Source of the DNA: a bacterium
GTDB lineage: Bacteria; Bacillota_I; Bacilli_A; RF39; UBA660
NCBI GenBank assembly: GCA_029007115.1
Contig: JAQXHG010000048.1
Location: 1 to 62,160 of the forward strand
Length of the DNA stretch: 62,160 nucleotides
Direction: 5' to 3'
Shown: in pieces, positions 6,026 through 45,386 of the stretch
Layout: each line of letters begins with the position of its first letter
Position numbering within the stretch: the first letter of the stretch is position 1
Position numbers and translations under genes: made by a program
The notes under the pieces: model-generated
Database searches by the model: none
Seen by the model: the letters and a program-made list of their open reading frames with translations, nothing else
Told to the model about the DNA's origin: nothing

Positions 6026-7021
6026 ATGAAGAAAATATTAATAATATTGTTGTTTTTTTTATGCGTTAAAGTTAATGCATCAATAGTAGTAATGGATGCA
6101 GATAGTGGAAGAGTTTTATATAGTGAAAATATGAATGAAAGAAAGTTAATAGCTTCGACAACTAAAATTATGACAAGTATTATAGCCTTAGAAAATGGGA
6201 ACTTGGAAGATATTTTTAAAGCAGGTAGAGAGATAAGAGAAGTAAATGGTTCAATGATTTACATAAAAGAGAATGAAAGTATGTCACTTAATGATTTATT
6301 ATATGGACTAATGCTTAGAAGTGGAAATGATGCGGCTATGGTTATAGCTAATAATGTACTTGGTTATGACAATTTTATTGCTCAGATGAATATTAAAGCA
6401 TTTAAACTTGGTATGAATTATACTACTTTTGAAAATCCACATGGTCTTAATGATAATACTAAAAACTATTCAACAGCATATGATTTATCTTTACTAATGA
6501 AATATGCAATTAATAATGAAGAGTTTCTTAAAATAACAAGTACTAAAAAATACAAAGATTGGTATAATAAAAATGAATTATTGTCAGACTATAAATATCT
6601 AATTAGTGGAAAGATTGGATATACACAAAAAAGTGGACAAGTTTTTGTAAGTGCTGCTAGAAAAAATAATAAAACATTAATAATTTCATCAATTGATGAG
6701 GGTGATAAATTTAATTTGCATAAAAAACTATATGAAAAATATTTTGAAATGTATGATAAATATAAAATATTAAATAAGTATACTTTTTCTTTTAAAGTAA
6801 AAAATAAAAATAATAATCATTATTTTATATTAGATGATTTTGATATGCTTATGAAAAAAGATGAAATAGATAAATTAAAAATTGAAGCTGATTTAGACAA
6901 TGAATATGTTCTTGTATATCTTTCTAACAAACTAATACATACAGAAAAACTATATAAAAATACATATAATCTTACTAAAAGAAGTAAATTAAAAGAGTTA
7001 TTGTCATTTTTTAAATTTTAA
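6026..7021 (+). CDS. Serine-type D-Ala-D-Ala carboxypeptidase (peptidase S11)
   Basis: Signal peptide, then the SxxK (ASTTK), SxN (SGND) and K[TS]G-like (KIGYT) motifs in the correct order. Confidence 0.8.
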   Translation: MKKILIILLFFLCVKVNASIVVMDADSGRVLYSENMNERKLIASTTKIMTSIIALENGNLEDIFKAGREIREVNGSMIYIKENESMSLNDLLYGLMLRSGNDAAMVIANNVLGYDNFIAQMNIKAFKLGMNYTTFENPHGLNDNTKNYSTAYDLSLLMKYAINNEEFLKITSTKKYKDWYNKNELLSDYKYLISGKIGYTQKSGQVFVSAARKNNKTLIISSIDEGDKFNLHKKLYEKYFEMYDKYKILNKYTFSFKVKNKNNNHYFILDDFDMLMKKDEIDKLKIEADLDNEYVLVYLSNKLIHTEKLYKNTYNLTKRSKLKELLSFFKF

Positions 7022-9066: not shown

Positions 9067-9705
9067 ATGAAAAAAAGTGATATATTTCTTATAATTACTA
9101 TTATTGTATTTATATTAACATATATTTTTATTAAAATATTTACTTATAAAAGTGAAAAGATATTAAATAATTATGCTAAGAGAAATTCAACTAATATAGT
9201 TACTAATATAATAAATGATTCGATATATGAAGTTTTATATGATAACAATTATGATGATTTAATACAAATTGATAAAAATAATTCCAATGAAATTAATTCA
9301 CTTAATTTTAATAATGTTAAAATTAACAATATATTATATTTAACAACACAAAATATTTTAGAAAATATAAAAGTATTAGAATCAAATAATAATCTAATAT
9401 ATAATGTTCCAATAGGAGTAATATACTCTTTACCTATATTAATTAATATAGGACCTAAAATCCCTTTTAAAATTGATATATTAAGTGATATTAATAGTGA
9501 TGCTGATATTAAAATAAAAGAATATGGAATAAATAATGTAGTAGTTGAAGTTATTTTAAATATAGAACTTAGTGTTCAAGTTATTTTTCCATTTGTTTCT
9601 CAAACACTTAATATAGAAAAACAATTAATATTAGATAGTAAGGTTATACAAGGAAATATTCCAGATTATTATGGAACTTATAGTAGTTTAAAGGATAAAA
9701 GTTAA
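9067..9705 (+). CDS. yunB: Sporulation protein YunB
   Basis: N-terminal TM. The C-terminal block IKEYGINNVVVEVILNIELSVQVIFPF...VIQGNIP matches the conserved YunB core as I remember it from Bacillus. Confidence 0.7.
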   Translation: MKKSDIFLIITIIVFILTYIFIKIFTYKSEKILNNYAKRNSTNIVTNIINDSIYEVLYDNNYDDLIQIDKNNSNEINSLNFNNVKINNILYLTTQNILENIKVLESNNNLIYNVPIGVIYSLPILINIGPKIPFKIDILSDINSDADIKIKEYGINNVVVEVILNIELSVQVIFPFVSQTLNIEKQLILDSKVIQGNIPDYYGTYSSLKDKS

Positions 9706-10368: not shown

Positions 10369-11232
10369 ATGACGAGTGAAGTTGATAACATATTAAAAGG
10401 AAGAGTAGAAGCAACGGTTGAATTTGTTAATTCAAAGAAAGTTATTGGTATATCAAGTGCACACTTAACTCCAAAAGAAGATGGAGTTGTTCCACTTTCA
10501 AAACAGGGTGCATTTATTGTTAATAAAGAAGAACAAACAGCGCAAATAGAAACGTTGGATTTTTCTGATACACCAAAAGAAAGTGGTAATACTGATAGTG
10601 AAGAAGTTAAAGTAGATGCTATACCAGGTTTAAAAACTCCAGAGTTTACGGATGTGGTAGTTGATGCTCCTTTAGAAGTAACAAGTCCAAAAGAACTAAG
10701 TGATTTTAATGTTACCGCAAGTAGTGAAGTTGTAGAAAAGCAAGAGCCACAAACAACTATAGAAGATACTATTGGAACAATAGATATTCAAATGCCACAG
10801 ATGCCAGATACAATAATTGCAGAAGAACCAAAAGAAGTAAATGAGCAGTTATTTGAAATTCCTAGAAATGATAATCCAATAAATGATATCCCAAATGATT
10901 CAAAAGAAGTAAGTACTCCAGATACACTAAATGAGTCATTATCAAATAATGTGGTAAATACTGTAGAAGAAAGTCCTATTGCAGAATCATTAGATGTTGA
11001 TGCTTTAGTAGAACAAAAGCGAAAAGAATTAATGGATGAAATAGATAAAAAAATAAAAGCATATTTAAGTGAAATAAAAGAAATATATAATCATGGAAAA
11101 TTAAATAATAGTACTAAAGTAGAGTCAAATGATGTTAAAGAAGTTCAAACTCAAGAAAATCCTGTTATGAATGATGCATTAGCGCAAATTAATAATATGG
11201 TAATACCAGGAGATAATGGATTAAAATTATAA
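10369..11232 (+). CDS. Acidic E/P/T/V-rich protein, function unknown
   Basis: Uninterrupted 287-codon frame starting 8 nt after the upstream stop. No recognisable motif. Confidence 0.45.
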   Translation: MTSEVDNILKGRVEATVEFVNSKKVIGISSAHLTPKEDGVVPLSKQGAFIVNKEEQTAQIETLDFSDTPKESGNTDSEEVKVDAIPGLKTPEFTDVVVDAPLEVTSPKELSDFNVTASSEVVEKQEPQTTIEDTIGTIDIQMPQMPDTIIAEEPKEVNEQLFEIPRNDNPINDIPNDSKEVSTPDTLNESLSNNVVNTVEESPIAESLDVDALVEQKRKELMDEIDKKIKAYLSEIKEIYNHGKLNNSTKVESNDVKEVQTQENPVMNDALAQINNMVIPGDNGLKL

Positions 11233-11283: not shown

Positions 11284-12147
11284 ATGAAAGATTTTATATA
11301 TGTTAATTATGGATTAAAAGTAAATAAAATATATAACAATTATTTTTTTGTTGGAAATGATAAAGTATATATTTATAAAACTTTAAAAAATGAAAAAGAA
11401 TTAGAAAAGTTATTTAATATAACAAATGATATGTATACTAAAAGACTTTTAGTTGATACATTTTTAATTAATAAAAATAATAAGTATTATACGAAAAAAG
11501 ATAAAGAAAATATTGTTTTATTAAAAGTAAATGATAGAGATAGTAAAGTAACATTAAAATATTTAATGAAATATATTGATTTTAAATTAGATATTGATGA
11601 GTTTGATATTATAGAATATTGGAAAAACACTATAGATAATATAGAAGAATTATTAGTTGAATATAATAAAGAGCATTTGTTATTACAAGATAGTGTTAAC
11701 TATTTTATTGGAATGTCAGAAAATGCAATTACTCTTATGGATCAATATGAAAAAAGAATATCTAATGATATAGCTCATAATATAAATTATTATAATTATA
11801 GTAATGAAAGTTTTAATAACCCTTTTAATTTTATTAGATTAAATAAGTTATATGATATTTCATTATATATAAAATATAATTTTTATATTGATAATATTGA
11901 TTATGATGAAATTTATAATATTTTAAATAGTATAGATGATGAGTATGATGAAGCATTTTTATTTTCCTGTTTATTATATAGAAATTTCTATTTTGATGTC
12001 GTTTTAAAAATTATAAAAGAAGATGAAGATGATGAAAAGTTAAAACTATTTATAAATAAAATTAAAAAATATGAAGAATTATTATCTTTTTGTCGTCAAA
12101 ATTTAAAAAAGTGTAAATGGTTAGCATTAATAAATTGGTTAAATTAA
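11284..12147 (+). CDS. Hypothetical protein, possibly a degenerate CotS/YutH-like spore-coat kinase fold
   Basis: 287-codon frame. Only a loose architectural resemblance, and no intact kinase motifs seen. Confidence 0.35.
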   Translation: MKDFIYVNYGLKVNKIYNNYFFVGNDKVYIYKTLKNEKELEKLFNITNDMYTKRLLVDTFLINKNNKYYTKKDKENIVLLKVNDRDSKVTLKYLMKYIDFKLDIDEFDIIEYWKNTIDNIEELLVEYNKEHLLLQDSVNYFIGMSENAITLMDQYEKRISNDIAHNINYYNYSNESFNNPFNFIRLNKLYDISLYIKYNFYIDNIDYDEIYNILNSIDDEYDEAFLFSCLLYRNFYFDVVLKIIKEDEDDEKLKLFINKIKKYEELLSFCRQNLKKCKWLALINWLN

Positions 12148-12613: not shown

Positions 12614-12690
12614 GGGCGATTAGCTCAGTTGGTTAGAGCATCTGCCTTACAAGCAGGGGGTCGGGAGTTCGAGTCTCTCATCGCCCACCA
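12614..12690 (+). tRNA. tRNA-Val (anticodon TAC)
   Basis: Manual cloverleaf: acceptor GGGCGAT/ATCGCCC, anticodon loop CTTACAA, T-loop TTCGAGT, encoded CCA. Confidence 0.9.
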
Positions 12691-12707
12691 TAATTTTATT
12701 TTTTTTC

Positions 12708-12783
<76 letters not shown>

Positions 12784-12788
12784 GTTTT

Positions 12789-12872
12789 GGAGAGATAGCG
12801 AAGAGGCTAAACGCGGCAGACTGTAAATCTGTTCCTTCGGGTTCCATGGTTCGAATCCATGTCTCTCCACCA
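12789..12872 (+). tRNA. tRNA-Tyr (GTA), long variable arm
   Basis: Acceptor GGAGAGA/TCTCTCC, anticodon loop CTGTAAA, class II variable arm, encoded CCA. Confidence 0.9.
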
Positions 12873-12882
12873 CTTGTATTGA

Positions 12883-12958
12883 TGCCTCGTAGCCAAGTGG
12901 TAAGGCACAAGACTTTGACTCTTGCATTCCGCTGGTTCGAATCCAGCCGAGGCAACCA
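12883..12958 (+). tRNA. tRNA-Gln (TTG)
   Basis: Acceptor TGCCTCG/CGAGGCA (U1-A72), anticodon loop CTTTGAC, encoded CCA. Confidence 0.85.
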
Positions 12959-12975
12959 TTTAATTTTAATTATAT

Positions 12976-13051
12976 GTCTCGCTAGCTCAGCCGGTAGAGC
13001 ACTTGACTTTTAATCAAGGGGTCTGGAGTTCGAATCTCCAGCGAGACACCA
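12976..13051 (+). tRNA. tRNA-Lys (TTT)
   Basis: Acceptor GTCTCGC/GCGAGAC, anticodon loop CTTTTAA, encoded CCA. Confidence 0.9.
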
Positions 13052-13056
13052 GGTGT

Positions 13057-13145
13057 GCCTTAGTGGCGGAATAGGTAGACGCACAGGACTTAAAATCCTG
13101 CGAGTGTAAAAGCTCGTGCCGGTTCGACTCCGGCCTGGGGCACCA
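13057..13145 (+). tRNA. tRNA-Leu (TAA), long variable arm
   Basis: Acceptor GCCTTAG/CTGGGGC (two G-U pairs), anticodon loop CTTAAAA, class II variable arm, encoded CCA. Confidence 0.85.
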
Positions 13146-13150
13146 TTTAC

Positions 13151-13243
13151 GGAGGAATACCCAAGTCTGGTTGAAGGGACCGGTCTTGAAAACCGGGAGG
13201 TCGAGAAATCGGCGCAGGGGTTCGAATCCCTTTTCCTCCGCCA
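13151..13243 (+). tRNA. tRNA-Ser (TGA), long variable arm
   Basis: Acceptor GGAGGAA/TTCCTCC, anticodon loop CTTGAAA, class II variable arm, encoded CCA. Confidence 0.9.
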
Positions 13244-13255
13244 TTTATATAATAT

Positions 13256-13332
13256 CGCGGAATGGAGCAATCTGGTAGCTCGCTGGGCTCATAACCCAGA
13301 GGTTGTTGGTTCAAATCCAGCTTCCGCAACCA
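13256..13332 (+). tRNA. Initiator tRNA-fMet (CAT)
   Basis: C1 x A72 mismatch and three G-C pairs closing the anticodon stem (GGG CTCATAA CCC). Both are initiator hallmarks. Encoded CCA. Confidence 0.85.
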
Positions 13333-13333
13333 T

Positions 13334-13409
13334 GGTCCGTTGGTGTAGTGGTTATCACGCTCGCCTGTCACGCGAGAGATCACGGGTTCAAGTCCCGTAC
13401 GGACCGCCA
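13334..13409 (+). tRNA. tRNA-Asp (GTC)
   Basis: Acceptor GGTCCGT/ACGGACC, anticodon loop CTGTCAC. Only a 1-nt spacer from the preceding tRNA. Confidence 0.9.
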
Positions 13410-13412
13410 TGT

Positions 13413-13488
13413 GGCTTCATAGCTCAGTTGGCAGAGCACAAGACTGAAAATCTTGGTGTCGTTGGTTCGATTCCAACTGAAGCCACCA
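13413..13488 (+). tRNA. tRNA-Phe (GAA)
   Basis: Acceptor GGCTTCA/TGAAGCC, anticodon loop CTGAAAA, encoded CCA. Confidence 0.9.
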
Positions 13489-13529
13489 CTTTTTTAATAA
13501 GAAAAATAATAGTGTTGCCTCTAGGATAT

Positions 13530-13606
13530 GCGCTCATAGCTCAATTGGATAGAGCATTTGACTACGGATCAAAAGGTTAGGGGTCCGACTCCTCTTGGGC
13601 GCACCA
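13530..13606 (+). tRNA. tRNA-Arg (ACG) with an atypical T-loop (C at position 55)
   Basis: Acceptor GCGCTCA/TGGGCGC, anticodon loop CTACGGA. The T-loop reads TCCGACT rather than TTCGACT. Confidence 0.85.
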
Positions 13607-13612
13607 TATAAT

Positions 13613-13689
13613 CGGGAAGTGGCTCAACTTGGTAGAGCATTCGGTTTGGGACCGAGGGGTTGCAGGTTCAAATCCTGTCTTCCCGACCA
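13613..13689 (+). tRNA. tRNA-Pro (TGG)
   Basis: Acceptor CGGGAAG/CTTCCCG, anticodon loop TTTGGGA, encoded CCA. Confidence 0.9.
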
Positions 13690-13700
13690 TTTAGAAATTA

Positions 13701-13726
13701 ACATCGACTAATCGATGTTTTTTTGT
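13701..13726 (+). terminator. Terminator of the tRNA array
   Basis: ACATCGA-CTAA-TCGATGT followed by T7. Confidence 0.8.
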
Positions 13727-13822
13727 TTTAGTCATTATTTATAGTTATATATAATCTAATAATTATCAATTTTTTATATAAGAACAAGACTTTATTTTAT
13801 TAAAATTAACACTTAAAAAAGG

Positions 13823-13851
13823 TTGTCATTCTTTAGTATAAATGATAAAAT
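13823..13851 (+). promoter_or_regulatory. Promoter of the Cys-rich exoprotein operon
   Basis: TTGTCA (13823-13828), 17-bp spacer, TG-a-TAAAAT (13843-13851). Confidence 0.6.
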
Positions 13852-13875
13852 ATTATCAGTAATAGTAGGTGAGAT

Positions 13876-14529
13876 ATGAAAAAATTATTGATAGTAATAA
13901 TATGCTTAGTAATTAGTATATGTAGTGTAAAAGCAGAGTGTACTGACACAGATATTTTAAAATGGGCTAAAGAAGTAGAAGTAAAATTTGAAACAAGTGA
14001 TAATATACCAAATGCAGAATATCTATATTATTTATATTTAGAGCCAAGTAGAGATGATATAGAAATACGTTCTACAAATAGTCTATATTCTGGAGTGACA
14101 AAAGGTGCAGTTCAAGAAAATGGAAGATATGGAATTGCGTCATATATTCATTTTGAAGAAAAAACATATACATTAGAAGTTTATATGAAGAAAGATGCGA
14201 AAGTATGTGCTGGAGAACAAATATTAAAATTAAGAAAAACAGTACCTCAGTATAATAGTTATTCAAATACAGCATATTGCTATGAATATCCACAAGCAGA
14301 ATTATGTCAAACAATGTCAGATACAGATGACTTAAGTCAAGAAGAGTTTATAAAACAAATGGAAGAATATGTAGAAGGTCAAATACATAAAGAAAATCCA
14401 AAGAAAGAAAACATAATATTAACAATAATATTTGATTATTTAATATGGATAATCGTACCAGTCTTACTAATTGGAATATTCTATAAGGTAAGAATAAATA
14501 AAGTAAGGAGGGAAAAAGATGCAAAATAA
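13876..14529 (+). CDS. Exported single-pass membrane protein (signal peptide + ectodomain + C-terminal TM), function unknown; operon gene 1
   Basis: Signal peptide MKKLLIVIICLVISICSVKA|E, four ectodomain Cys, C-terminal TM (ILTIIFDYLIWIIVPVLLIGIF) and a basic tail. GTAGGTGAG lies upstream. Confidence 0.6.
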   Translation: MKKLLIVIICLVISICSVKAECTDTDILKWAKEVEVKFETSDNIPNAEYLYYLYLEPSRDDIEIRSTNSLYSGVTKGAVQENGRYGIASYIHFEEKTYTLEVYMKKDAKVCAGEQILKLRKTVPQYNSYSNTAYCYEYPQAELCQTMSDTDDLSQEEFIKQMEEYVEGQIHKENPKKENIILTIIFDYLIWIIVPVLLIGIFYKVRINKVRREKDAK

Positions 14530-17500
14530 AATAACAAAGATAATAACAATAATAATAGTTTTCACTCTATTTGTAAGCACTATAGATGCTTTAGATGTAG
14601 GTACTAAGGTAAGAATTGAAAAAGATGGTAATACATATGTTGTTGTTTCTGTAGAAGATGCAAGTGATAGATGTCCAATTGTAGATAATCCAGATGAGCC
14701 AGATGCTTTTAAAGTTAAATCATCTTATTTTGATACGATAGGTTATACATACGAAAACACTTGTCAACAAGGTGGACAAGTATGTACTGAAACATGGACA
14801 CAGGCAGTAAAAGATAAAACTATCTTTGATGCTATTAATTCGGCATATGGTAATAATGGAGCAAATTCTGAATCAACTGCTGAAGATAGCAATACTACTG
14901 TTGGTGCTGTGGGCGATAAAAATGACACATCTTTGTCAACCATAAGTGATAAATATGTGTCATTTAATAAATCAAAATATAATGTTGTTAAAGTGTATAC
15001 TTCATATCAAGATTATCTAAATTCAATAGGAAATGAATATTATAGTCCAGATGGTACTGATGATATACTGTATGGAGATTATCCTGTAGTATCAGATACT
15101 TCATATTTTACAACTAATGGTGGAATAGCAGCTGCAGCAGCAAAGTTAAAAAATTATGGTTATAGAGTTGTATACTTTGATGAGTGCGTAGGACAAAAAG
15201 CTAGAAAGTGTCAGAAATGGATTCCACCTGAATGTACTTCATGGGGAGAAACAAAAACAGGTGTTCCTTATTGTGTATCTTCGTCACCTGGCTATTATGA
15301 CAAAATTACTAATTATGGATTAAGTGTAACAAAGACTATGTGGCCATCAGAAGAGAATGTGGACAAGGTTACTTTAGAAGATTTTTTTGAAAGAGAAGTC
15401 GAAGATCCTCCTGCGTGTAGTGGAGGTTATACACAAGTTGGTGAAGTAAGCAATTACGGTCATTGTGGAGAAGCTTGGTATAGAGCAAAAACAAAAACTT
15501 GCAAGTGGGTATGTACTAAGTCAGGACCTAGTAAGGTTGAAGTTTATGGCACAAGGTTAGTTATTGATGATGTTGATGCATATTGTGTAACACCTTCAGC
15601 AGGATATAATAAATCTTATGCTTGGGATACTACTTTCGATGCATCAAAATGTAAAAATAGTTTACAAATGTATAAAATTAAAGATGGAAAATCTGTTGCG
15701 GAGTATGATATAGATTGTGGATATGCATATATTCTAGCAGAAGCTAACAGATTAAATAATATAATAAAAGAGCAAACAGGAAAAGAAAATTATTTTAGTT
15801 ATGGTGCAATTGATTTCGCTATGAAATTATTTGGAACAGGTATTACTGGAAATGGAACAGATTTAGGTACTATAACAGGAAAAGAGTATTTACAATCAGG
15901 AGGATATTACACTAGATATTATGGATATTCAGGCTCATACGAATATGTTGGAATACCTTGGATAAGGGATGGTATTGATAGATCTAGCTGGCCATCTATA
16001 TATAGATATTTTTTACCAGATTTTTATAGTATTTATATTAGAACAGCTAGAGTGGCAAGATCATATTTAAGAGGAAATTATAGATTAGCAGATGTTGGAA
16101 ATGTAGAAAAATCTAATATAAATGGTAATGCTTTAACTGAGACTATTGTAAAAGATGGAAAGAGTGTTGAAATGGTAATAGATCCATTTGAATATTTACT
16201 TCCAAGAGAATGTAAAGTTACATTTGATGATTGTACACAATCTGATACTGAATTATCATATAATGATAAATATTCTCAATCTACACTTGATTTGTTTATT
16301 CCAATGGATGATAAAACTTTAGATTATCTTCAAGATGCAGGAAAGAATACTACACAATGTAAAAATCAAAGTGGACTTGGAGTATTATGTGGATTAAAAA
16401 ATGAAAAAGGTAATGCTGAATATATAAAATCATTATACTTATATATAAGAGCACTTCAAGGAAACGAATTAAGATTTGAAGAAAAAGTTGAAGAAAGTAT
16501 TGAACAGTACATACCTGTTGATGGGTTAACAAAAGTACTATATGAGGTAGGTGAAGATGGAGAAGCAAATGCAATAATAAGATATGCAATTGATACTAGA
16601 ATTACAACTGAGTTAATATCTGGAGAAAAAGAAGTAGATTGTGATTGGACTAATGAAGAAACAAAAAATCAATGTGTTGCTCAAATATTTGTATATAATA
16701 GTAATGGACAATTGATTTCTCAATCTGATCACTATGATTATTGTAAAAAGAATTATTGTTATTACAAAGTTGATTCTAAAAAAATTTGTAAAGAAGAGGG
16801 AGTAAATACAAAAATAACTTCAATTGTAGTAACTCCATCAAGTTTAAAGTCTACTACCGTTAAAAAGATAGATAATGGTATTAAAGGACAACAAACAATA
16901 TTTGTATATGATGTTAATTCAAAATTAACTGGAAGTTTTTGTCAATTAATTGAAGCAGTTCAAGAAAATACAACTGTTCAGTGCCCATGTAATTCAAAAG
17001 AACAACCAAATTTAGTAGAGCCAACTGGAAATATAAGTGGAACTAATTATTGTAGTAAAAATTATAATGCATATGATGAATTATTCTATGGAGATCCTAG
17101 TATAAGTACAATAATAAATGCTTGTTATGAAGAAGATAAATTAAAATATGATTTTACAGATGATTTAAATGCAAATGGAAATGATATAATGTATCAAGCA
17201 GAATTAGAATCAAGATATTCATTCCAAAAACAGAGTGATGACTTTGGAGTATGTAAGTTATATTGTAGAGATGAAACAAGATTCTATATTGGAAATAAAC
17301 TATCTGTAAAAGCAGGACAAAATTTAAGATATGATATAGGGCAAACATTAATAGATAAAAAGATAATAAATGAAACAGCAAAAGATAAGGGTAACTTAGA
17401 TGGTAAAGATAGAAATACTCAACATAATTATATGCCAAGTGTTGTACTACAATTAAGAGAATGTACATCAGAAATAGATTATAAGAAGTGGGAGACATTA

Positions 17501-19030
17501 TATAATAAAGCAACTACAACAAAAGAAAAGAATCAGTTATTATATTCAATATATAATTGTAATTTATATACGACAGAAGAGATAAGACAAAAGATAACGG
17601 AAGGAAAATTAAAGAATATAATAAATGAGAATCCAACAACATATCAATCATTAAATGGCTATGCAGAACCAGCAATGATAGAATATAAATATAATACTAG
17701 CGATGGAAATATAACAATAGTAAATAATTATGGAACAACAAAAGATTATTTATTAGCGCAAGAGGGATGTACAAGTTTAGGATTAAATCAAACTGATTGT
17801 GCAGCGTACTTCTTAAATTATTATTCAGATGATTATTATAATATTGATAGTCCAGATAACTTAGGAATAACATTAGATTTTGAACATGGACTAGTAAATT
17901 CAAATTTAAATGAGACTATATATTGTTCAGGAGAGTCATGTTATAAATTAAAAGGAAAAGATGGTAAATATTACTATAATCCAAATGCAAAAAATAAAAA
18001 TGATTATACAACAGTAGATAATATATATGATGGTTCTGGAAATATAGTTAGATATGAAAGTGGAAAAATACTAAGTTATCAAGAATGGGGATTAAATTAT
18101 AAAGAGTATGATAAAAATAGCACTAATTATATAACAACTAAGATAGATGGAAATGAAGTTCCTAAAAATGAATATGCATCATTTATAGTAGTAACAGAGA
18201 CAGGATTTTATAATAAACAGAAATACTATTCAGATAGTTATAGCGGAATAATAAGAAATGAACCAAATCAGGATGCAACAATAAAATCAGTAGAGTTAGA
18301 TAAAAATATATTCCCATTACATTTAGATAAACAAACAGGAACATATGAGATAAGCCATACATTTAATAGTATAAGAACAGCATATAAGAGAAGTACATAT
18401 TATACAGAAAAGAATTATTCATTATTTGATAAGATAGATAATAAGCCCGGAACTGTAAACTTCATATGCGAATATGATGTATATAATACAACAACTAAAT
18501 ATGAATGTGAGTCTGGTAATTGTAAGAGAGAATTAGGGTTTATTTATAGAGCAGTTGATTTAAATGATGTATTTGAGTCAGTTACAAATGAGTCAAGACA
18601 ATATCCAGAAAACTGGGCAACATCATTTGCTCAGACAACTCTAAATCAAATACAAGCTAGTTCTCAAAATATTTTAGAACAAGATAAAAATAATGATGAT
18701 AATGATAGTTACTTAGAATATAGTTATACATTAACTCCAGATGGAATAAAAAGAATAAAAGAGTATAATAAAACAAAATTAATAGATGGTGGATACTTAG
18801 ATACTTCTACATATGGATGTCAATATGATGAAGAAGAAGGAATTTTCTATAATTGTAAAAGTAAATTCTTATTAGAGTTAGAATCATTAAATGGAAAGTA
18901 TGATGGTTTAATTACAGTAAATAAAAATGATGGTGTGTCAGAATTTTGTTCAAATACACATAATGAAGACAAGGATTATTGTAAGTATCAACAAAAATAT
19001 GAAACTATTGATTTATCAGGAGGTGAATAA
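14519..19030 (+). CDS. Giant (1,503 aa) cysteine-rich extracytoplasmic protein with an N-terminal hydrophobic anchor/signal, no recognisable family; operon gene 2
   Basis: Uninterrupted 4.5-kb frame in DNA where stop codons are otherwise frequent. AAGGAGGG lies 8 nt upstream, inside gene 1, and the start overlaps the gene 1 stop by 11 nt. About 43 Cys by manual count. Confidence 0.75.
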   Translation: MQNKITKIITIIIVFTLFVSTIDALDVGTKVRIEKDGNTYVVVSVEDASDRCPIVDNPDEPDAFKVKSSYFDTIGYTYENTCQQGGQVCTETWTQAVKDKTIFDAINSAYGNNGANSESTAEDSNTTVGAVGDKNDTSLSTISDKYVSFNKSKYNVVKVYTSYQDYLNSIGNEYYSPDGTDDILYGDYPVVSDTSYFTTNGGIAAAAAKLKNYGYRVVYFDECVGQKARKCQKWIPPECTSWGETKTGVPYCVSSSPGYYDKITNYGLSVTKTMWPSEENVDKVTLEDFFEREVEDPPACSGGYTQVGEVSNYGHCGEAWYRAKTKTCKWVCTKSGPSKVEVYGTRLVIDDVDAYCVTPSAGYNKSYAWDTTFDASKCKNSLQMYKIKDGKSVAEYDIDCGYAYILAEANRLNNIIKEQTGKENYFSYGAIDFAMKLFGTGITGNGTDLGTITGKEYLQSGGYYTRYYGYSGSYEYVGIPWIRDGIDRSSWPSIYRYFLPDFYSIYIRTARVARSYLRGNYRLADVGNVEKSNINGNALTETIVKDGKSVEMVIDPFEYLLPRECKVTFDDCTQSDTELSYNDKYSQSTLDLFIPMDDKTLDYLQDAGKNTTQCKNQSGLGVLCGLKNEKGNAEYIKSLYLYIRALQGNELRFEEKVEESIEQYIPVDGLTKVLYEVGEDGEANAIIRYAIDTRITTELISGEKEVDCDWTNEETKNQCVAQIFVYNSNGQLISQSDHYDYCKKNYCYYKVDSKKICKEEGVNTKITSIVVTPSSLKSTTVKKIDNGIKGQQTIFVYDVNSKLTGSFCQLIEAVQENTTVQCPCNSKEQPNLVEPTGNISGTNYCSKNYNAYDELFYGDPSISTIINACYEEDKLKYDFTDDLNANGNDIMYQAELESRYSFQKQSDDFGVCKLYCRDETRFYIGNKLSVKAGQNLRYDIGQTLIDKKIINETAKDKGNLDGKDRNTQHNYMPSVVLQLRECTSEIDYKKWETLYNKATTTKEKNQLLYSIYNCNLYTTEEIRQKITEGKLKNIINENPTTYQSLNGYAEPAMIEYKYNTSDGNITIVNNYGTTKDYLLAQEGCTSLGLNQTDCAAYFLNYYSDDYYNIDSPDNLGITLDFEHGLVNSNLNETIYCSGESCYKLKGKDGKYYYNPNAKNKNDYTTVDNIYDGSGNIVRYESGKILSYQEWGLNYKEYDKNSTNYITTKIDGNEVPKNEYASFIVVTETGFYNKQKYYSDSYSGIIRNEPNQDATIKSVELDKNIFPLHLDKQTGTYEISHTFNSIRTAYKRSTYYTEKNYSLFDKIDNKPGTVNFICEYDVYNTTTKYECESGNCKRELGFIYRAVDLNDVFESVTNESRQYPENWATSFAQTTLNQIQASSQNILEQDKNNDDNDSYLEYSYTLTPDGIKRIKEYNKTKLIDGGYLDTSTYGCQYDEEEGIFYNCKSKFLLELESLNGKYDGLITVNKNDGVSEFCSNTHNEDKDYCKYQQKYETIDLSGGE

Positions 19031-19804
19031 GTGAAAGAGTCTGCATGGGGATATTTAATAATATTATTAGGTGTATCAATAATAGCAATAATGTTATTAA
19101 TACAAAATTTAACAACAACAAGTGAAGAAAATTTTTACTTGACTAGAGAAGTATTAGAAGCGTCAATGTATGATGCTGTAGATTATGGAACTTATGCAAA
19201 GAGTGGAAAATTAGTTATGTCAGAGCAAAAGTTTGTAGAGGTATTCTTAAGAAGATTTTCAGAAAGTGTAACAAATAATAGAACATATAATATAAATTTT
19301 TATGATATACATGAATATCCACCAAAAGCTACAGTGTTAATAACTACAGATACGGGGGAAACAACAGTATCATCAGATACAGTAAATATAAATGTTAATA
19401 CATATTTAAATGCAATATTAGAGACAGTATCTGTATATAATGAAAAAATGATAATATCAAAATTGACGGAAACTTATACAAAAGATGGAGTATTGGTTGA
19501 AAGTTTAAAATGTGGTGAGGAAGTAATAACTAATTTTCAGTTTTTGGCAGATAATGATCCTTGTGGATTATATAAGAATATAGGAACAGATGATGCAGGT
19601 AATGAAAAGATAATATTTTCAAGAAATGCAGGATCAGATAAAACAGAAGAATATTGTAATGTAAGAATAGAAACAGAAGGTTTGCAAGGACAAAAGAATA
19701 TAAGAGAATATATAGTTAGAAAATCATCTTTAGTAAAACCAGAAGATTGGAATGATTTGGCAACTCCAGCATATACAAATAGATATTGCAACATTTCAAA
19801 TTAA
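19031..19804 (+). CDS. N-terminally anchored ectoprotein, function unknown; operon gene 3
   Basis: The GTG start falls on the base after the gene 2 TAA, with GGAGG 7 nt upstream. N-terminal TM (WGYLIILLGVSIIAIMLLI) and four ectodomain Cys. Confidence 0.6.
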   Translation: MKESAWGYLIILLGVSIIAIMLLIQNLTTTSEENFYLTREVLEASMYDAVDYGTYAKSGKLVMSEQKFVEVFLRRFSESVTNNRTYNINFYDIHEYPPKATVLITTDTGETTVSSDTVNINVNTYLNAILETVSVYNEKMIISKLTETYTKDGVLVESLKCGEEVITNFQFLADNDPCGLYKNIGTDDAGNEKIIFSRNAGSDKTEEYCNVRIETEGLQGQKNIREYIVRKSSLVKPEDWNDLATPAYTNRYCNISN

Positions 19805-19810
19805 ATATTA

Positions 19811-19846
19811 ACCTTATTTCTTAGTAATTTTAAGAAATAAGGTTTT
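19811..19846 (+). terminator. Terminator of the three-gene operon
   Basis: 13-bp stem ACCTTATTTCTTA / TAAGAAATAAGGT followed by a T run. Confidence 0.8.
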
Positions 19847-19936
19847 ATTATGAAATAAAATAAACTTGTTTTTATTTTACTTTGAATATATAATATTATT
19901 GTTATAAATTTAGATATTTATAAATTGGAGGTAAAT

Positions 19937-25503: not shown

Positions 25504-25941
25504 ATGAATGATATTTACAAAAGAGTAAAAGAATTTAAAAACAGATTCCCATTAACAATGGCGTTTAGATTAGTAAAACATACAAAAGTTTTAGAAAGTC
25601 ATTTAAATCCAGGAGAAGAAATAAAATATATTTTTTGTGGTCAAAAGAATTATAATTCTTATATGCTTTGTAATACATGTGTAGTAGCACTTACAGATAG
25701 AAGAATATTAATTGCTCAAAAAAGATTACTATGGGGATATTTTTTAACTATGATAACACCAGATATGTATAATGATTTAAAAGTAACAAAAGGCTTAATT
25801 TGGAGTAATATTGAAATAGATACAATTAAAGAAACAGTATATATTTCAAATTTAGATCCAAAAGCAGCTAAAGAAATTGAATCAGAAATTACTGAATTTA
25901 TGATGAAAGAGAAAAAGAAATATGGTAAAAAAAATAATTAG
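25504..25941 (+). CDS. Bacterial PH (YokE-like) domain protein
   Basis: GGAGGG upstream. The pattern GEEI.y.f.G......CVVALTDRRILIAQKR resembles bacterial PH domains. Confidence 0.45.
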   Translation: MNDIYKRVKEFKNRFPLTMAFRLVKHTKVLESHLNPGEEIKYIFCGQKNYNSYMLCNTCVVALTDRRILIAQKRLLWGYFLTMITPDMYNDLKVTKGLIWSNIEIDTIKETVYISNLDPKAAKEIESEITEFMMKEKKKYGKKNN

Positions 25942-27118
25942 TTTTATATTATTTTTTTTGATTAGTATAAATTTTGTTAATGCAACTGAGGTTGATGTAA
26001 TTAGTGAAAAATATATATTATATAATATGAATGAGGGTGTTATCTTAGATGAGAAAGATGCATATAGTGAAACTTATATTGCTAGTTTGACTAAGATAAT
26101 GTCTGTGATAGTTGCACTTGAGAATATTGATGATTATGAAAAAAAAGTAACTATTACAAGTGATATGCTTAAAGATATTGATTGGGATGTTGCAGTGACT
26201 GGTTTTAGTATTAATCAAGAAGTCACTTATAATGATTTATTATATGGAGCAATATTATCTAGTGGAGCAGATTCTATTAATGCGCTTGGATATTCTATAG
26301 CGGGAAACATGGATGAATTTGTTAAATTAATGAATAATAAGGTTAAAGAATTAGGTCTTAAAAATACTAAGTTTGCTAATGCTATTGGTTTGTATGATGA
26401 AAATAATTATAGTAGTGCATATGATGTTGCTCAAATATTAATCTATTCATTAAAGAATAAAAAATTTAAAGAAATATTTGAAACTAAAGAATATAAATTA
26501 AGTAGTGGTAAAGATATAAAAAGTACTTTATACTATTATAATAAGAATAGTGATATAAATGTTGAATATATAAAAGGAGCAAAAACAGGTTATATTAATG
26601 CTTCTGGTTATTGTCTTGCATCAACAGCAACAATAAATAATGTAGATTATTTACTTGTAACATTAAATGCAAGAGGTTCTACACAAAATAATCACATTTT
26701 AGATAGTACAAAAATATATGATTATTTTTCAAGTAATTATAGTTATCAAAATATAGTTAGTAGGGATGATATTGTTGTTAATCTTAACACTAAATATGCA
26801 AAAGAAAAAAATATCAATATTAAGTCTGGAGTAAATATAGATAAATATTTAAAAAATGGATTTGATAAAACTAAATTGAAGTATGAATATAATGGTATTT
26901 CTAAAATTGATGCAACTACTAAGATTGGCACTAAAATAGGAACTATTAAAGTAATATATAATGATGAAGTATTAGATGAATTTGATTTACTATTTAATGA
27001 AAAATTAACTTTAAGCGTTTTAGGAATTATGTATAAAAATAATTTTTTAATTATTGCTTGTATTTTATTAATAATATTATTTAGTTTACCTAGTAAAAAG
27101 AAGCGTAAAAGAAAATAA
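25922..27118 (+). CDS. Serine-type D-Ala-D-Ala carboxypeptidase (S11) with a C-terminal beta domain and TM anchor
   Basis: Signal peptide; ASLTK (SxxK), SGAD (SxN-like) and KTGY motifs; C-terminal hydrophobic helix + KKKRKRK. Confidence 0.8.
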   Translation: MVKKIISFILFFLISINFVNATEVDVISEKYILYNMNEGVILDEKDAYSETYIASLTKIMSVIVALENIDDYEKKVTITSDMLKDIDWDVAVTGFSINQEVTYNDLLYGAILSSGADSINALGYSIAGNMDEFVKLMNNKVKELGLKNTKFANAIGLYDENNYSSAYDVAQILIYSLKNKKFKEIFETKEYKLSSGKDIKSTLYYYNKNSDINVEYIKGAKTGYINASGYCLASTATINNVDYLLVTLNARGSTQNNHILDSTKIYDYFSSNYSYQNIVSRDDIVVNLNTKYAKEKNINIKSGVNIDKYLKNGFDKTKLKYEYNGISKIDATTKIGTKIGTIKVIYNDEVLDEFDLLFNEKLTLSVLGIMYKNNFLIIACILLIILFSLPSKKKRKRK

Positions 27119-41990: not shown

Positions 41991-42078
41991 GATTTAATTT
42001 TTCTTTTTTTATTTCATTTTTCTTGAATAAAATGTCTAATTTTGATATTATTATATAAATGATAAAGAGGTGGAAGAA

Positions 42079-43953
42079 ATGAATTTTACAATGGTATTAG
42101 TTTTTTGTTTAATATTATCAGCAATATTAGTTGTTTCATTCTTTGCAAGAAAACAAATATCATCTGATGAAACTAATATTTATTCAAAATTACTAATAAT
42201 AAATATGATTGGTATTATTCTTGAATTATCATTTACTTTTTTTAATAAATTTGAGTTTGGTGATGATTTAAAAAGAATACTTATGGACATGTATTTCATG
42301 TATTTACTTGGATTTATATCATATATTGGAATATATATATTTAAAGTTTGCTTTAATGATAAAAGTGATAAATTCCATAAAATTATACGTTATATCGTTT
42401 TAGGAATGTTTTTAATTTTTAGTGTATTAGTTTGTGTTTTACCAATAAAAATGTATGATGGATATTCTGTTGGTGCTGCGGCTAATACTGTATATATTTA
42501 TTCATTTGCATTTTTTATAGTAAGTGGTATAGCATTTTTTATGAATATTAGAACTGTTAATTATACTAAGATGTTACCTATGTTTTTACTTGCAATTGGA
42601 TCATCAATATTAACAGTTATTCAAAAGATAAATCCAGAGATTGTTATTATGACAGAGTGTCATTTCTTAATATTATTCATTATGTATCATACAGTTGAAA
42701 ACCCAGATGAAAAAGTAGTTAGAGTTGAAAAGCAAGCTAAATTAGAAGCAGAGAGAGCTAATCAAAGTAAGAGTGAATTTTTAGCTAGTATGTCTCATGA
42801 ACTTAGAACTCCTTTAAATGCTATTATTGGTCTTAGTGAAGATATTGAATCATATAAGGAAAGTGTTTCTGAAGAAATAAGAGAAGATAGTGCTGATATA
42901 GTTAATGCTTCTAATACATTACTTGAATTAATCGGAAATATTTTAGATATTAGTAAGATAGAAAGCGGTAAATTAGAAATTGTTAATACTTTTTATGATC
43001 CTAGAGAAGAAATTGAGTCATTAACTAAAATAATGAGAACTAAAGTAGCTGAAAAGCCAATTGAACTAATTGTTAACATTTCAAATAACATGCCAAGAGT
43101 TTTATATGGAGATAGATTAAGAATTAAACAAGTTATTAACAATTTTTTAAGTAATGCAATTAAATATACAGAAAAAGGAACTATTACATTAGATGCATTA
43201 TGGATAGATAAAGAAAAGAAAATATCATTTAAGGTAAGTGATACAGGAAATGGAATAAAGAAAGAAGATTTAGATAAAGTATTTGGTAAGTTTGAAAGAT
43301 TACAGGTAGAGAAAATAAGTGCTGTACAAGGTACTGGGCTTGGTCTTGCAATTACTAAGAATTTAGTTGAACTTATGAATGGAGAAATTGGAGTATATAG
43401 TATATATGGTCAAGGTACAACATTCTATGCTGTAATACCACAAGAAATAGGTGGAATTTCTGATCTTGCTAAATTGCAAGAAGAGTCTATAAATAAAGCA
43501 ACTGATTCTAATATCTTTAAGGGAAAGAGAATATTAATAGTTGATGATAATCAATTGAATATTAAAGTACTAAAAAAAGCAATTAAGTTATATGATTTTA
43601 TAATAGATGAATGTTATAATGGAAAAGAATGTCTAGATAAGATAAATGAAGGGAATACATATGATTTAATATTGCTTGATAATTTAATGCCTATAATGAA
43701 TGGTGAAGAGACTATAAAAGCACTTAAATCTAATCCTAATTTTAAGACACATGTTCTTGCGTTAACTGCTGATGCTATGACTGGAGCAAGAGAAAAATAT
43801 GTAAGTATGGGATTTGATGATTATTTAGCAAAACCATTTACAAGAGATACAATTATTCAAAAAATAGGTAATGTGTTTGATAATAATAGTTCATCTAGTA
43901 TTGGTATAGGACCTGTTGAAGCAATTATTAACCAGGATAGTAACAATCAATAA
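42079..43953 (+). CDS. Hybrid sensor histidine kinase / response regulator with a multi-TM sensor domain
   Basis: About 6 N-terminal TM helices, H-box SHELRTPLNAIIG, N/G boxes (NAIKYT, DTGNGI, GTGLGLAI), and a C-terminal REC domain (ILIVDDN...LLDNLMP...LTADA). AGAGGTGG lies upstream of ATG 42079. Confidence 0.85.
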   Translation: MNFTMVLVFCLILSAILVVSFFARKQISSDETNIYSKLLIINMIGIILELSFTFFNKFEFGDDLKRILMDMYFMYLLGFISYIGIYIFKVCFNDKSDKFHKIIRYIVLGMFLIFSVLVCVLPIKMYDGYSVGAAANTVYIYSFAFFIVSGIAFFMNIRTVNYTKMLPMFLLAIGSSILTVIQKINPEIVIMTECHFLILFIMYHTVENPDEKVVRVEKQAKLEAERANQSKSEFLASMSHELRTPLNAIIGLSEDIESYKESVSEEIREDSADIVNASNTLLELIGNILDISKIESGKLEIVNTFYDPREEIESLTKIMRTKVAEKPIELIVNISNNMPRVLYGDRLRIKQVINNFLSNAIKYTEKGTITLDALWIDKEKKISFKVSDTGNGIKKEDLDKVFGKFERLQVEKISAVQGTGLGLAITKNLVELMNGEIGVYSIYGQGTTFYAVIPQEIGGISDLAKLQEESINKATDSNIFKGKRILIVDDNQLNIKVLKKAIKLYDFIIDECYNGKECLDKINEGNTYDLILLDNLMPIMNGEETIKALKSNPNFKTHVLALTADAMTGAREKYVSMGFDDYLAKPFTRDTIIQKIGNVFDNNSSSSIGIGPVEAIINQDSNNQ

Positions 43954-44014: not shown

Positions 44015-44230
44015 ATGAAGAATAATGATTATGAAATAAATATATATAAAGATTTAATACATATAAAAAATTATAATAAAATTAAAGATATTAACATTAA
44101 ATACATAGTTATTGAATTAAATATCAAAATAATAAAAATTAATGGAAATAATTTAATAATTAATAAATTAGATGAGCATGAACTAAGTATTATTGGTGAA
44201 TTTAAGGGAATAGAATTAATAGATGAATGA
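44015..44230 (+). CDS. yqfC: YabP/YqfC-family sporulation protein
   Basis: Small protein immediately upstream of and overlapping yqfD, with the I.I.G..L.I..L......I.G.i..ie pattern. Assignment rests mainly on conserved position. Confidence 0.55.
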   Translation: MKNNDYEINIYKDLIHIKNYNKIKDINIKYIVIELNIKIIKINGNNLIINKLDEHELSIIGEFKGIELIDE

Positions 44231-45386
44231 TTTAGTTCTAATAAAAGTTGATACAAATTCCAATAGATTTATTAATTATTTGGTTTACCATGATATAAAG
44301 TATTCTTCATTAAAAAAAGATGATATATCATATACATTAATTGTTAAGTACGAAGATTATAAAAAGATTAATAGAAGATACTCATCTAATATAATTAAAT
44401 ATTATGGTGTAAAATATTATAAAAATATTTTAATTACTCATAAATACATTATTATATCTTTTGCAATAGGTTTATTATTATTACTTCTACTTACTAATAC
44501 AATATTTGACATACAAATAAATACAGATGATGTTGAATTAAAAAATAAGATAATCAGAATACTTAAAAAATATGATATATATGTTTATAAAAGAAAAAAA
44601 AGTTTTAATGAATTAGAAATAATAAAAGAAAAAATATTATATGATAATGATGATATTTTAGAATGGATTGAAATAAGTAATAAAGGTTGTAAATATATTG
44701 TCAATTTAACTCCAAAAATTACAAGTGATAAAAAAGAAGATGATTCTCTTGGAGATATAATTGCACAAAAAGAGGGCGTTATTAAACATATAATTGTCCA
44801 TAGTGGTACAAAAGTGAGAGAAGAAAATGAATATGTTAAAAAAGGGGATATATTAATTAGTGGTAATATACTAAAGAATGATGAAGTAATAAACCAAGTG
44901 AAAGCTAAAGGTGAAGTATATGCAGAAGTTTGGTATCTTGTTAAAGTAAATATTCCTTTTAATTATACTGATAGGGTTAAAACTGGAAAAGTTGTTAATC
45001 ATTATTATATTGAACTTTTTAATAAAAAATTTACAATATTAGGTAAGTATGATAGTGAAAATACTATGAATGAAAAAAAACTTCTTGTTGATAAACCATA
45101 TTTAAAATTTAAGCTTTATAAAGAAAAGAAAATAGAATATGATTATAAGGAGTTTAAACTAACACAAGAAGAAGCTTATAATGAAGGCCTTAAAAGAAGT
45201 GAAGAATATATTAAAAATACTCTTTCTAGTGATGAATATATTATTTCTAAAAATGTTTTGAAAAAAGAGGTAAATAGTAGTAAAATGTATTTAGAAGTAT
45301 TTTATAAAGTTTATGAAAGTATTGGGGTTACTTCTAAGATTAAAGAAATAGAAAAGGAAGAGTTAAATGAGGAATACAGTAATTGA
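44223..45386 (+). CDS. yqfD: Sporulation protein YqfD
   Basis: About 390 aa with a single central TM (YIIISFAIGLLLLLLLTNTIF) and the block A.K.G.I..I.v..G...V..G..V.KGD.LISG. Conserved position before ybeY/dgkA/cdd/era. Confidence 0.65.
   Translation: MNDLVLIKVDTNSNRFINYLVYHDIKYSSLKKDDISYTLIVKYEDYKKINRRYSSNIIKYYGVKYYKNILITHKYIIISFAIGLLLLLLLTNTIFDIQINTDDVELKNKIIRILKKYDIYVYKRKKSFNELEIIKEKILYDNDDILEWIEISNKGCKYIVNLTPKITSDKKEDDSLGDIIAQKEGVIKHIIVHSGTKVREENEYVKKGDILISGNILKNDEVINQVKAKGEVYAEVWYLVKVNIPFNYTDRVKTGKVVNHYYIELFNKKFTILGKYDSENTMNEKKLLVDKPYLKFKLYKEKKIEYDYKEFKLTQEEAYNEGLKRSEEYIKNTLSSDEYIISKNVLKKEVNSSKMYLEVFYKVYESIGVTSKIKEIEKEELNEEYSN

Follow-up and report, generated by a model that had tools for sequence, protein, structure and literature searches.

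The locus at positions 13823–19846 of the DNA analysed here raises the question of what a three-gene unit built around a 1503-aa cysteine-rich exported protein does when it stands alone behind an array of tRNA genes. The window, i.e. the whole 62,160 bp stretch that was analysed, covers positions 1 to 62,160 of contig JAQXHG010000048.1 (GenBank assembly GCA_029007115.1), and the three genes are designated g1, g2 and g3. A first-pass annotation, made from the letters of the DNA, had described them as a self-contained operon around an exoprotein of no recognisable family, and its coordinates, gene overlaps, Shine-Dalgarno sites, promoter, terminator and protein topologies were all re-found. Comparison with related genomes indicates that the trio very likely belongs to a Tad-like system. 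It is probable that it represents an accessory module of a divergent Tad-like (type IVc-like) filament, which has been relocated and would form a tip complex like those of PilY1 or the Kil Tip proteins. The features of the unit are as follows.

12614–13689: array of 12 tRNA genes
13700–13719 (+ strand): terminator-like hairpin at the end of the 12-tRNA array, bounding the trio unit upstream
13823–13851 (+ strand): sigma-70/SigA-like promoter, TTGTCA-17-(TG)-TAAAAT, a consensus match only (10/12)
13876–14529 (+ strand): g1, 217 aa
14519–19030 (+ strand): g2, 1503 aa
18116–18898 (+ strand): C-terminal domain of g2, residues ~1200–1460, conserved family-wide and always C-terminal in homologues
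19031–19804 (+ strand): g3, 257 aa, GTG start
19031–19426 (+ strand): DUF5411 domain of g3, residues 1–132, from a Pfam match and an AlphaFold2 (AF2) model
19433–19801 (+ strand): lineage-specific C-terminal β-domain of g3, residues 135–257, with 4 Cys
19810–19844 (+ strand): terminator-like hairpin after the trio, 15 pairs with a weak T tail

The genetic context of the trio was examined in relatives, and homologues of g2 with 46–60% identity were found at L001 and L002/L004. On the contigs carrying the g2 homologues P0004 and P0005, genes for filament machinery start ~100 bp after g1-g2-g3, in the order two RcpC/CpaB-like genes (rcpC1 and rcpC2), a T2SSE ATPase gene and genes for polytopic proteins of 299 and ~265 aa. 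The cluster continues with genes for a Cys-rich pilin-like protein of 80–100 aa, a minor pilin-like protein of 160–190 aa, a 314-aa protein (p314), a 120-aa protein (p120) and LtaS. The same cluster was found around distant genes of the DUF5411 family, to which g3 belongs, where a pedC-like gene, a sortase-domain gene of 520–570 aa (srt) and a gene designated g0 lie upstream. The giant open reading frames (ORFs) of these distant DUF5411 clusters are homologues of g2 (E=1e-27 to 1e-38), and their upstream neighbours are homologues of g1.

A scan of species-representative genomes seeded with the ATPase found the ATPase cluster in at least 497 species-level genomes, and the best 80 of the at least 497 loci were surveyed with purpose-built hidden Markov models (HMMs). 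At least 6.5 kb of upstream sequence was available for 56 of the 80, and in 48 of these 56 informative loci the order was g1-giant ORF-DUF5411-rcpC. The remaining loci had g0-giant-g3 (one), g1-g2 shifted upstream of pedC-srt-g0-g3 (five) or no trio nearby (two). Where the g2 HMM gave no match, an ORF of 1079–1962 aa was still present between g1 and g3, mostly with a 4-nt overlap with the g1 stop codon. The three genes thus travel together, trio synteny with the cluster being seen in 54 of the 56 informative genomes. However, the description of the unit as self-contained did not hold, as in nearly all relatives the trio lies just upstream of an RcpC/CpaF/TadBC-like operon, and the machinery cluster of a sister genome described below lacks exactly the trio.

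Variations on this arrangement were seen at individual loci. In L013, L015, L021, L024 and L028, g1-g2 lie upstream of pedC-srt-g0, with g3 remaining beside rcpC1, and in L029 and L036 the module is present a second time in tandem (g2-g3-g1-g2-g3). A protein search identified more than 7,000 ATPase clusters at 90% identity. The hosts are mostly recorded as uncultured gut 'Bacilli', 'Tenericutes', 'Clostridium sp. CAG:609/628' and Candidatus Onthocola, from human and animal guts; the relatives of the genome analysed here are labelled 'Bacilli' or 'Tenericutes' metagenome-assembled genomes (MAGs).

None of the machinery genes was found within the 62-kb window. The sister MAG JBJEED01 includes a contig (contig 85) that is 93.2% identical in nucleotide sequence to window positions 12905–19849, with the same layout of tRNA array, trio and terminator. 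Contig 86 of this MAG carries pedC-srt-g0, followed by a terminator, a promoter-like site and then rcpC1-rcpC2-ATPase-tadB-tadC-pilin-minor-p314-p120-LtaS, and the canonical slot for g1-g2-g3 is empty. As the machinery cluster of the sister MAG lacks exactly the trio in its canonical slot, the trio is a relocated module. The trio-less cluster L091 has a terminator with a 12-bp stem after g0, and the sequence TTGAAA-18-TG-TATACT before rcpC1 is identical in L091 (8124–8245) and in the canonical locus L004 (12843–12872). The presence of the same promoter-like site in L004 indicates that the machinery operon was already a separate transcription unit. The simplest reading, and the most likely one, is that in this lineage the trio has left the cluster but continues to act for it in trans.

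The machinery itself was assigned by comparison of each product with known families. The cluster ATPase matches PF00437 (E=2e-27), and its best relative in the PDB is CpaF (E=1.7e-19), followed by archaeal GspE/FlaI and VirB11; an ATPase of this CpaF type is encoded next to the trio in relatives and also occurs in the sister MAG. The two RcpC-like paralogues match PF16976 at E=5e-5 and 1.5e-4 (22–24 bits, below the 28.8-bit cut-off), and precomputed RcpC matches in other loci were graded 'weak' or 'faint'. The polytopic proteins of 299 and ~265 aa, two separate membrane proteins of the size of TadB and TadC, come after the ATPase in the positions that TadB and TadC take, and together with the two RcpC-like proteins they would fit a Tad-type machine. 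The cluster pilin, with the consensus MKEATG ELNMTVvTvvAIAA, has no EY at +5/+6 and no Flp Pfam match, and neither g3 nor the 'minor' family has a TadE-like Pfam match even at E≤1. No match to A24 was found among the scanned window ORFs, and PDB profile searches with the minor-pilin, 314-aa and TadB-like families gave no match. As the Flp, TadE, A24 and platform-protein HMM features fail or stay weak, the system is called Tad-like and not Tad. Members of the p120 family (e.g. L005, coordinates 17037–17384) are 115–125 aa long with two transmembrane segments, and 77 of 84 members have a C-terminal CxxC; a weak match to PF18895 (type IV secretion system pilin; E=0.07) makes p120 an unexpected VirB2-like element in a Tad-like cluster.

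The gene that ties the trio most directly to a known family is g3. Its residues 1–132 match Pfam DUF5411 (PF17424) over model positions 1–132 of 134 with 166.7 bits (cut-off 30; E=3.4e-49), hence the lack of a recognisable family applies to g1 and g2, which have no Pfam, NCBIfam or PHROGs match, but not to g3. In other lineages the DUF5411 domain is constant and is followed by nothing, by dockerin/EF-hand-like modules or by FG-GAP-like modules, and a constant DUF5411 domain with a varying C-terminus is the pattern of modular minor pilins. An AF2 model of g3 with a predicted local distance difference test (pLDDT) score of 84.8 has an N-terminal helix of 47 residues (3–49), two short helices and a three-stranded sheet (86–129), predicting a pilin-like 'lollipop' shape, and then a separate β-domain at residues 135–252. 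The leader of g3, MKESAWG/YLIILLG, combines a Gly with a hydrophobic stretch, and a leader of the form M[KR]E[AS]xxG plus hydrophobic stretch is common to g3 and to the pilin and minor-pilin families of the cluster (MKESxWG/Y in g3, MKEATG/ELNMTV in the cluster pilin and MRESxGG/TWL in the minor protein). The GTG start of g3 is backed by its homologues, all of which start MKES or MKHS. PDB profile searches with the g3 family gave no match, and it is from the shared leader, the domain pattern and the model that g3 would be expected to function as a pilin.

The product of g2 has a Sec signal peptide (cleavage at about IDA/LD), a variable N-terminal third and a conserved core of residues ~330–1503. 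The family ends with NCKSxFL, followed near the C-terminus by a short strand-like segment, G-[IV]-x-[IV]-x-K. In a word-indexed protein search with g2 only five relatives were retrieved and the family looked tiny, whereas an exhaustive profile search of 1.84 billion representatives (50% identity) identified 160 family representatives at E≤1e-3, 107 of them at E≤1e-10. Nearly all members are 1000–1600 aa long, and g1 and g2 each belong to a large uncharacterised family. Profile searches with g2 gave no match in Pfam, NCBIfam, PHROGs or PDB sequences. A model of residues 330–1503 (pLDDT 69.5) has mixed β-rich and helical parts and returned no Foldseek match at E≤0.001 in PDB or BFVD, only generic β-sandwich noise, so that g2 still lacks a known family, as originally stated, in all five of these collections.

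The product of g1 has a Sec signal peptide (cleavage at about VKA/EC), an ectodomain of ~160 aa, a C-terminal transmembrane helix and a basic tail, and is a paralogue of g0, which precedes g1 in canonical clusters. An alignment of 65 family members shows four conserved Cys in the ectodomain and no sorting motif conserved before the transmembrane helix. The idea that g1 and g2 are sortase (LPXTG) substrates was therefore rejected, there being no conserved motif and g2 ending in a soluble tail. In one protein (P0245; 1691 aa), g1 with its transmembrane helix and basic tail is fused in frame to the signal peptide and body of g2, which is either a real fusion or a gene-calling read-through of the 4-nt overlap.

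In Firmicutes, exported proteins are generally poor in cysteine. The cysteines of the trio were recounted, and g1 has six (two in the signal peptide and four in the mature protein), g2 has 43, all downstream of the signal peptide, and g3 has four. These counts agree with the 4, about 43 and 4 first given for the ectodomains of g1, g2 and g3, and the listed close pairs CKWVC, CKKNYC, CPC, CKLYC, CSGESC and CESGNC are all present. Across six close homologues all but ~8 of the 43 Cys of g2 are invariant, and in residues 330–1503 ~22 of 33 are kept in at least 85% of 57 homologues that are only 23–30% identical. Conservation of this extent at such low identity indicates that the Cys of g2 are structural and not an accident of composition.

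Enrichment in Cys is common to all of the predicted extracellular parts of the cluster (5.6% in the pilin, 3.7% in g2 and 3.5% in the 120-aa protein, with four Cys each in g0, g1 and the minor protein), and the membrane machinery is almost free of Cys. Disulfides rather than metal sites would be expected in the trio, and the initial view of an exported, Cys-rich and probably disulfide-stabilised surface assembly is supported. A Cys-rich extracellular apparatus in Firmicutes implies a need for an oxidative-folding route. The PedC-like protein was considered as the missing thiol-disulfide oxidoreductase and rejected, as the median number of Cys in its family is 0 and CxxC is absent. No DsbA/BdbD-like gene was found among the scanned window ORFs of at least 100 aa.

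The three genes are tightly coupled. The g1 stop and the g2 ATG overlap by 11 nt, with AAGGAGGG located within g1, 6 nt 5′ of the g2 ATG. The GTG of g3 is the base right after the TAA of g2, with GGAGG 7 nt 5′ of the GTG. The conserved ..GGE end of g2 (window positions 19016–19030) was considered as a signal and rejected, as it is the Shine-Dalgarno GGAGG of g3 read as codons. Many cluster proteins end in ..GGE, ..GGN or ..GAE, with the GGAGG of the next gene within their last codons, and such gene ends are a signature of systematic translational coupling across the cluster. The site at 13823–13851 is the sole + strand 10/12 match with an extended -10 in the region. However, promoter-like matches as a class are not above chance in this AT-rich DNA (45 found against 50 expected), thus the trio promoter is plausible and not proven.

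A mechanism in which g2 acts as a tip adhesin can be drawn from these features by analogy with known filaments, and its chances appear about even. In this mechanism g3 would be a minor-pilin-like subunit whose hydrophobic N-terminal helix enters the filament base or tip, with its variable C-terminal domain facing outward. The g2 protein would be exported by Sec and folded with many disulfides, and its conserved C-terminal domain, possibly through a terminal β-strand, would dock on g3 and the other minor pilin, which together would form the base of a tip or initiation complex. Riding at the filament tip as a variable, ligand-facing adhesin, g2 would present its variable N-terminal part and may license assembly. 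As a bitopic membrane protein made in a fixed ratio with g2, g1 may hold or chaperone g2 until incorporation. The trio, behind the tRNA array with its own promoter and terminator, would act in trans with machinery encoded elsewhere.

A further step, which can be taken only tentatively, is to regard the trio as forming the distal complex in a type IV filament subclass that has yet to be described, made up of a giant disulfide-rich g2 of novel fold, a DUF5411 pilin and a bitopic partner, and forming a swappable and relocatable tip. If so, this subclass is spread over hundreds of uncultured species of gut Bacilli, often with reduced genomes, its tip would attach the bacteria to host or partner cells, and all of its extracellular parts would need oxidative folding.

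Several observations weigh against placing the trio in a filament and at its tip. The claim of action in trans derives from a binned MAG rather than from the genome of the window. When the profile of g3 was compared with that of the minor-pilin family, the alignment covered just the first 23 residues, with 24% probability; g3 lacks Glu+5 and has no N_methyl (PF07963), TadE or Flp Pfam match, and a Foldseek search of PDB with the g3 model retrieved no pilin (best E=0.08). Neither Pfam nor PDB profiles gave a match for the TadB/C-like and 314-aa proteins, and no prepilin peptidase (A24, TadV/CpaA) was found among the scanned cluster proteins. The missing fold match for g2 is weak evidence, as the model is only moderately confident. 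The g2 core (residues 330–1503), being long and conserved with fixed Cys, would suit a structural part of the envelope as well.

The last point leads to the best-surviving alternative, which is unlikely but deserves weight, namely that the trio serves structurally within the machine that spans the envelope in a monoderm Tad-like system (as a wall conduit, anchor or assembly platform) and not as a tip adhesin. A trio that is almost always present as a single copy beside the machinery would suit such a part, as would the retention of ~22 Cys in g2 residues 330–1503 across very divergent homologues, the membrane anchoring of g1 and g0, and the presence in the cluster of a sortase-domain protein and LtaS, both cell-wall enzymes. 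However, evolutionary rates point the other way. Compared against the same genomes, identities were 67–92% for the ATPase, 63–89% for the TadB-like protein, 44–81% for g3, 24–67% for g1 and 26–60% for g2. Among the genes so compared the three that evolve fastest are those of the trio, and in the cluster as a whole the fastest evolution is that of g2, g1 and g0. The length of g2 also varies, from 955 to 1962 aa across the surveyed loci, L029 and L036 have two g2-g3 copies, and adhesin-type Flg_new surface-protein repeats are present in 3 of 35 diverse g2 homologues (no other Pfam family was found among them). This gradient of rates and the second g2-g3 copies are what one would look for in an exposed part that faces ligands, rather than in a core part of the machine, and the module can leave the cluster.

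It is improbable that g2 is instead a cargo or effector that a pseudopilus pushes out, as in type II secretion, with g1 and g3 as targeting partners. Type IV filament machines include secretion systems, a DUF5411/CpaF operon has been labelled 'secretion-related' (PMC9523054), and g2 has a Sec signal and no anchor. However, a monoderm needs no second step across an outer membrane, scans against Pfam, NCBIfam and PHROGs found no catalytic or toxin domain in g2 (nor did Pfam in the 35 homologues), and what is conserved in g2 is a docking-like domain at the C-terminus, with a pilin-like gene next to g2.

The reading offered by the first-pass annotation, in which the three products act on their own, as a surface or spore-surface complex stabilised by disulfides or metal and in need of no other apparatus, has become a shade less credible still. 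In this genome the trio does have its own promoter and terminator and lies at least 13 kb and 42 kb from any pilus gene, and the sporulation genes yunB and yqfD are present in the window. Against this stand the Tad-like synteny in nearly all informative genomes, the empty slot in the machinery cluster of the sister MAG and the leader that g3 has in common with the pilins of the system. Nothing supports the spore-surface idea, and yunB and yqfD are not adjacent to the trio. An origin as a phage, plasmid or conjugative-element remnant, for which the position directly behind the tRNA array and a GC content of 31% in 14–16 kb against ~25% for the window might speak, was rejected as extremely remote, as there are no credible PHROG matches, no integrase, no tblastn match of g2 or g3 in 50,697 phage or 72,556 plasmid records and no significant BFVD fold match, and the genes lie in a conserved chromosomal cluster in relatives.

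The rest of the window is ordinary chromosome, with the 12-tRNA array, sufC/sufBD, gyrB/gyrA, hrcA-grpE-dnaK-dnaJ, era, ybeY, recO, yqfD and yunB. A 583-aa protein (window positions 56972–58723, + strand) has the prepilin leader MKNKKG/FTLVELLAVIAIL (PF07963, E=2e-8), which, in contrast to that of g3, is of the canonical KG/FTLVE type, and is fused to DUF285/BspA-like repeats (PF03382, E=1.6e-74). It is a modular pilin of a second, canonical type IV pilus/Com-type system in the same genome. The + strand at 42070–43953 encodes a hybrid histidine kinase (HisKA-HATPase_c-receiver), and a paralogue at L091 (positions 1–1787), ~8 kb upstream of the machinery of the sister MAG, has 68% nucleotide identity over 316 nt. 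The genome has a GC content of ~25%, and yunB, yqfD and genes for two S11 DD-carboxypeptidases are located at 9067–9705, 44223–45386, 6026–7021 and 25922–27118. Two adjacent 287-aa ORFs (10369–11232 and 11284–12147, + strand) have no Pfam family at the thresholds used, and a GGGtGRT family protein (998–1999, + strand; PF14057, E=1.5e-195) belongs to a conserved family of unknown function.

As an accessory module of a Tad-like filament the trio is less exotic than the first-pass annotation had hoped, and it points to a very common, unstudied surface organelle whose parts other than the ATPase all lack annotation. If the trio is the filament tip, it is through its products that a large share of gut bacteria, so far unstudied, make contact with their environment. 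DUF5411 gains a testable role. As accessory modules of pili can sit far from the machinery, annotation by neighbourhood only misses modules of this kind.

In a literature search neither this Bacilli cluster nor the g1 and g2 families nor the detached layout turned out to have been described, and four known systems were compared with the cluster. In a gene-embedding study, Miller et al. (2022) found DUF5411 near CpaF in Clostridia and left the role of DUF5411 unanalysed (PMC9523054). The DUF5411/CpaF/PilC-like operon of Roseburia, Ruminococcus and Eubacterium was predicted to be secretion- or pilus-related, by prediction only (PMC9523054). That operon resembles the cluster described here in bringing together a DUF5411 protein, a CpaF-family ATPase and a large protein, in that case with internalin-like repeats. 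However, the operons of that study are of 8–9 genes and from Clostridia, whereas the cluster described here is found in Bacilli-type MAGs and adds the pedC-like, sortase-domain, g0/g1 and LtaS genes, and in the window the trio is detached.

In TANB77, an uncultured gut order of Firmicutes, a divergent Tad-like cluster consists of CpaB-TadZ/CpaE-TadA-TadBC and unannotatable pilin-like genes (PMC11680825). The likeness lies in divergent Tad-like machinery followed by pilin-like genes, including one for a large minor pilin (PMC11680825). The gene set and order differ, TANB77 having a fused TadBC and a ParA-like TadZ/CpaE, but no DUF5411 and no giant Cys-rich non-pilin.

In type IVa pili a C-terminal β-strand of PilC/PilY1 completes the sheet of a minor pilin (PMC12918778). 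Like g2, PilC/PilY1 is a Sec-exported non-pilin of more than 1000 aa with a variable N-terminal and a conserved C-terminal part, is encoded beside minor pilins, and has a short conserved strand-like segment at its extreme C-terminus (PMC12918778). However, g2 has no β-propeller match in Pfam, in PDB sequences or by Foldseek, and the machinery is of the CpaF type and not PilB/PilT. The resemblance of g2 to PilC/PilY1 is one of architecture and gene context only, and a shared mode of docking would be suggested by analogy.

The 'Tip' modules KilL/KilM/KilN of the Tad-like Kil system of Myxococcus xanthus consist of three genes and are in several cases encoded away from the machinery (PMC12075869). 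They differ from the trio in that KilL, KilM and KilN are all TadE/F/G-type pilins with prepilin sites, whereas of the trio products only g3 resembles a pilin, g2 carrying a standard Sec signal and g1 having the topology of a type I membrane protein. The two sets are related neither in sequence nor by Pfam family, and the present host is a monoderm. However, both are three-gene modules for a Tad-type machine, and the Kil modules, like the trio, are variable, interchangeable and predicted to have many intramolecular disulfides, their extremity being formed by one large protein whose distal domain is of unknown fold (PMC12075869).

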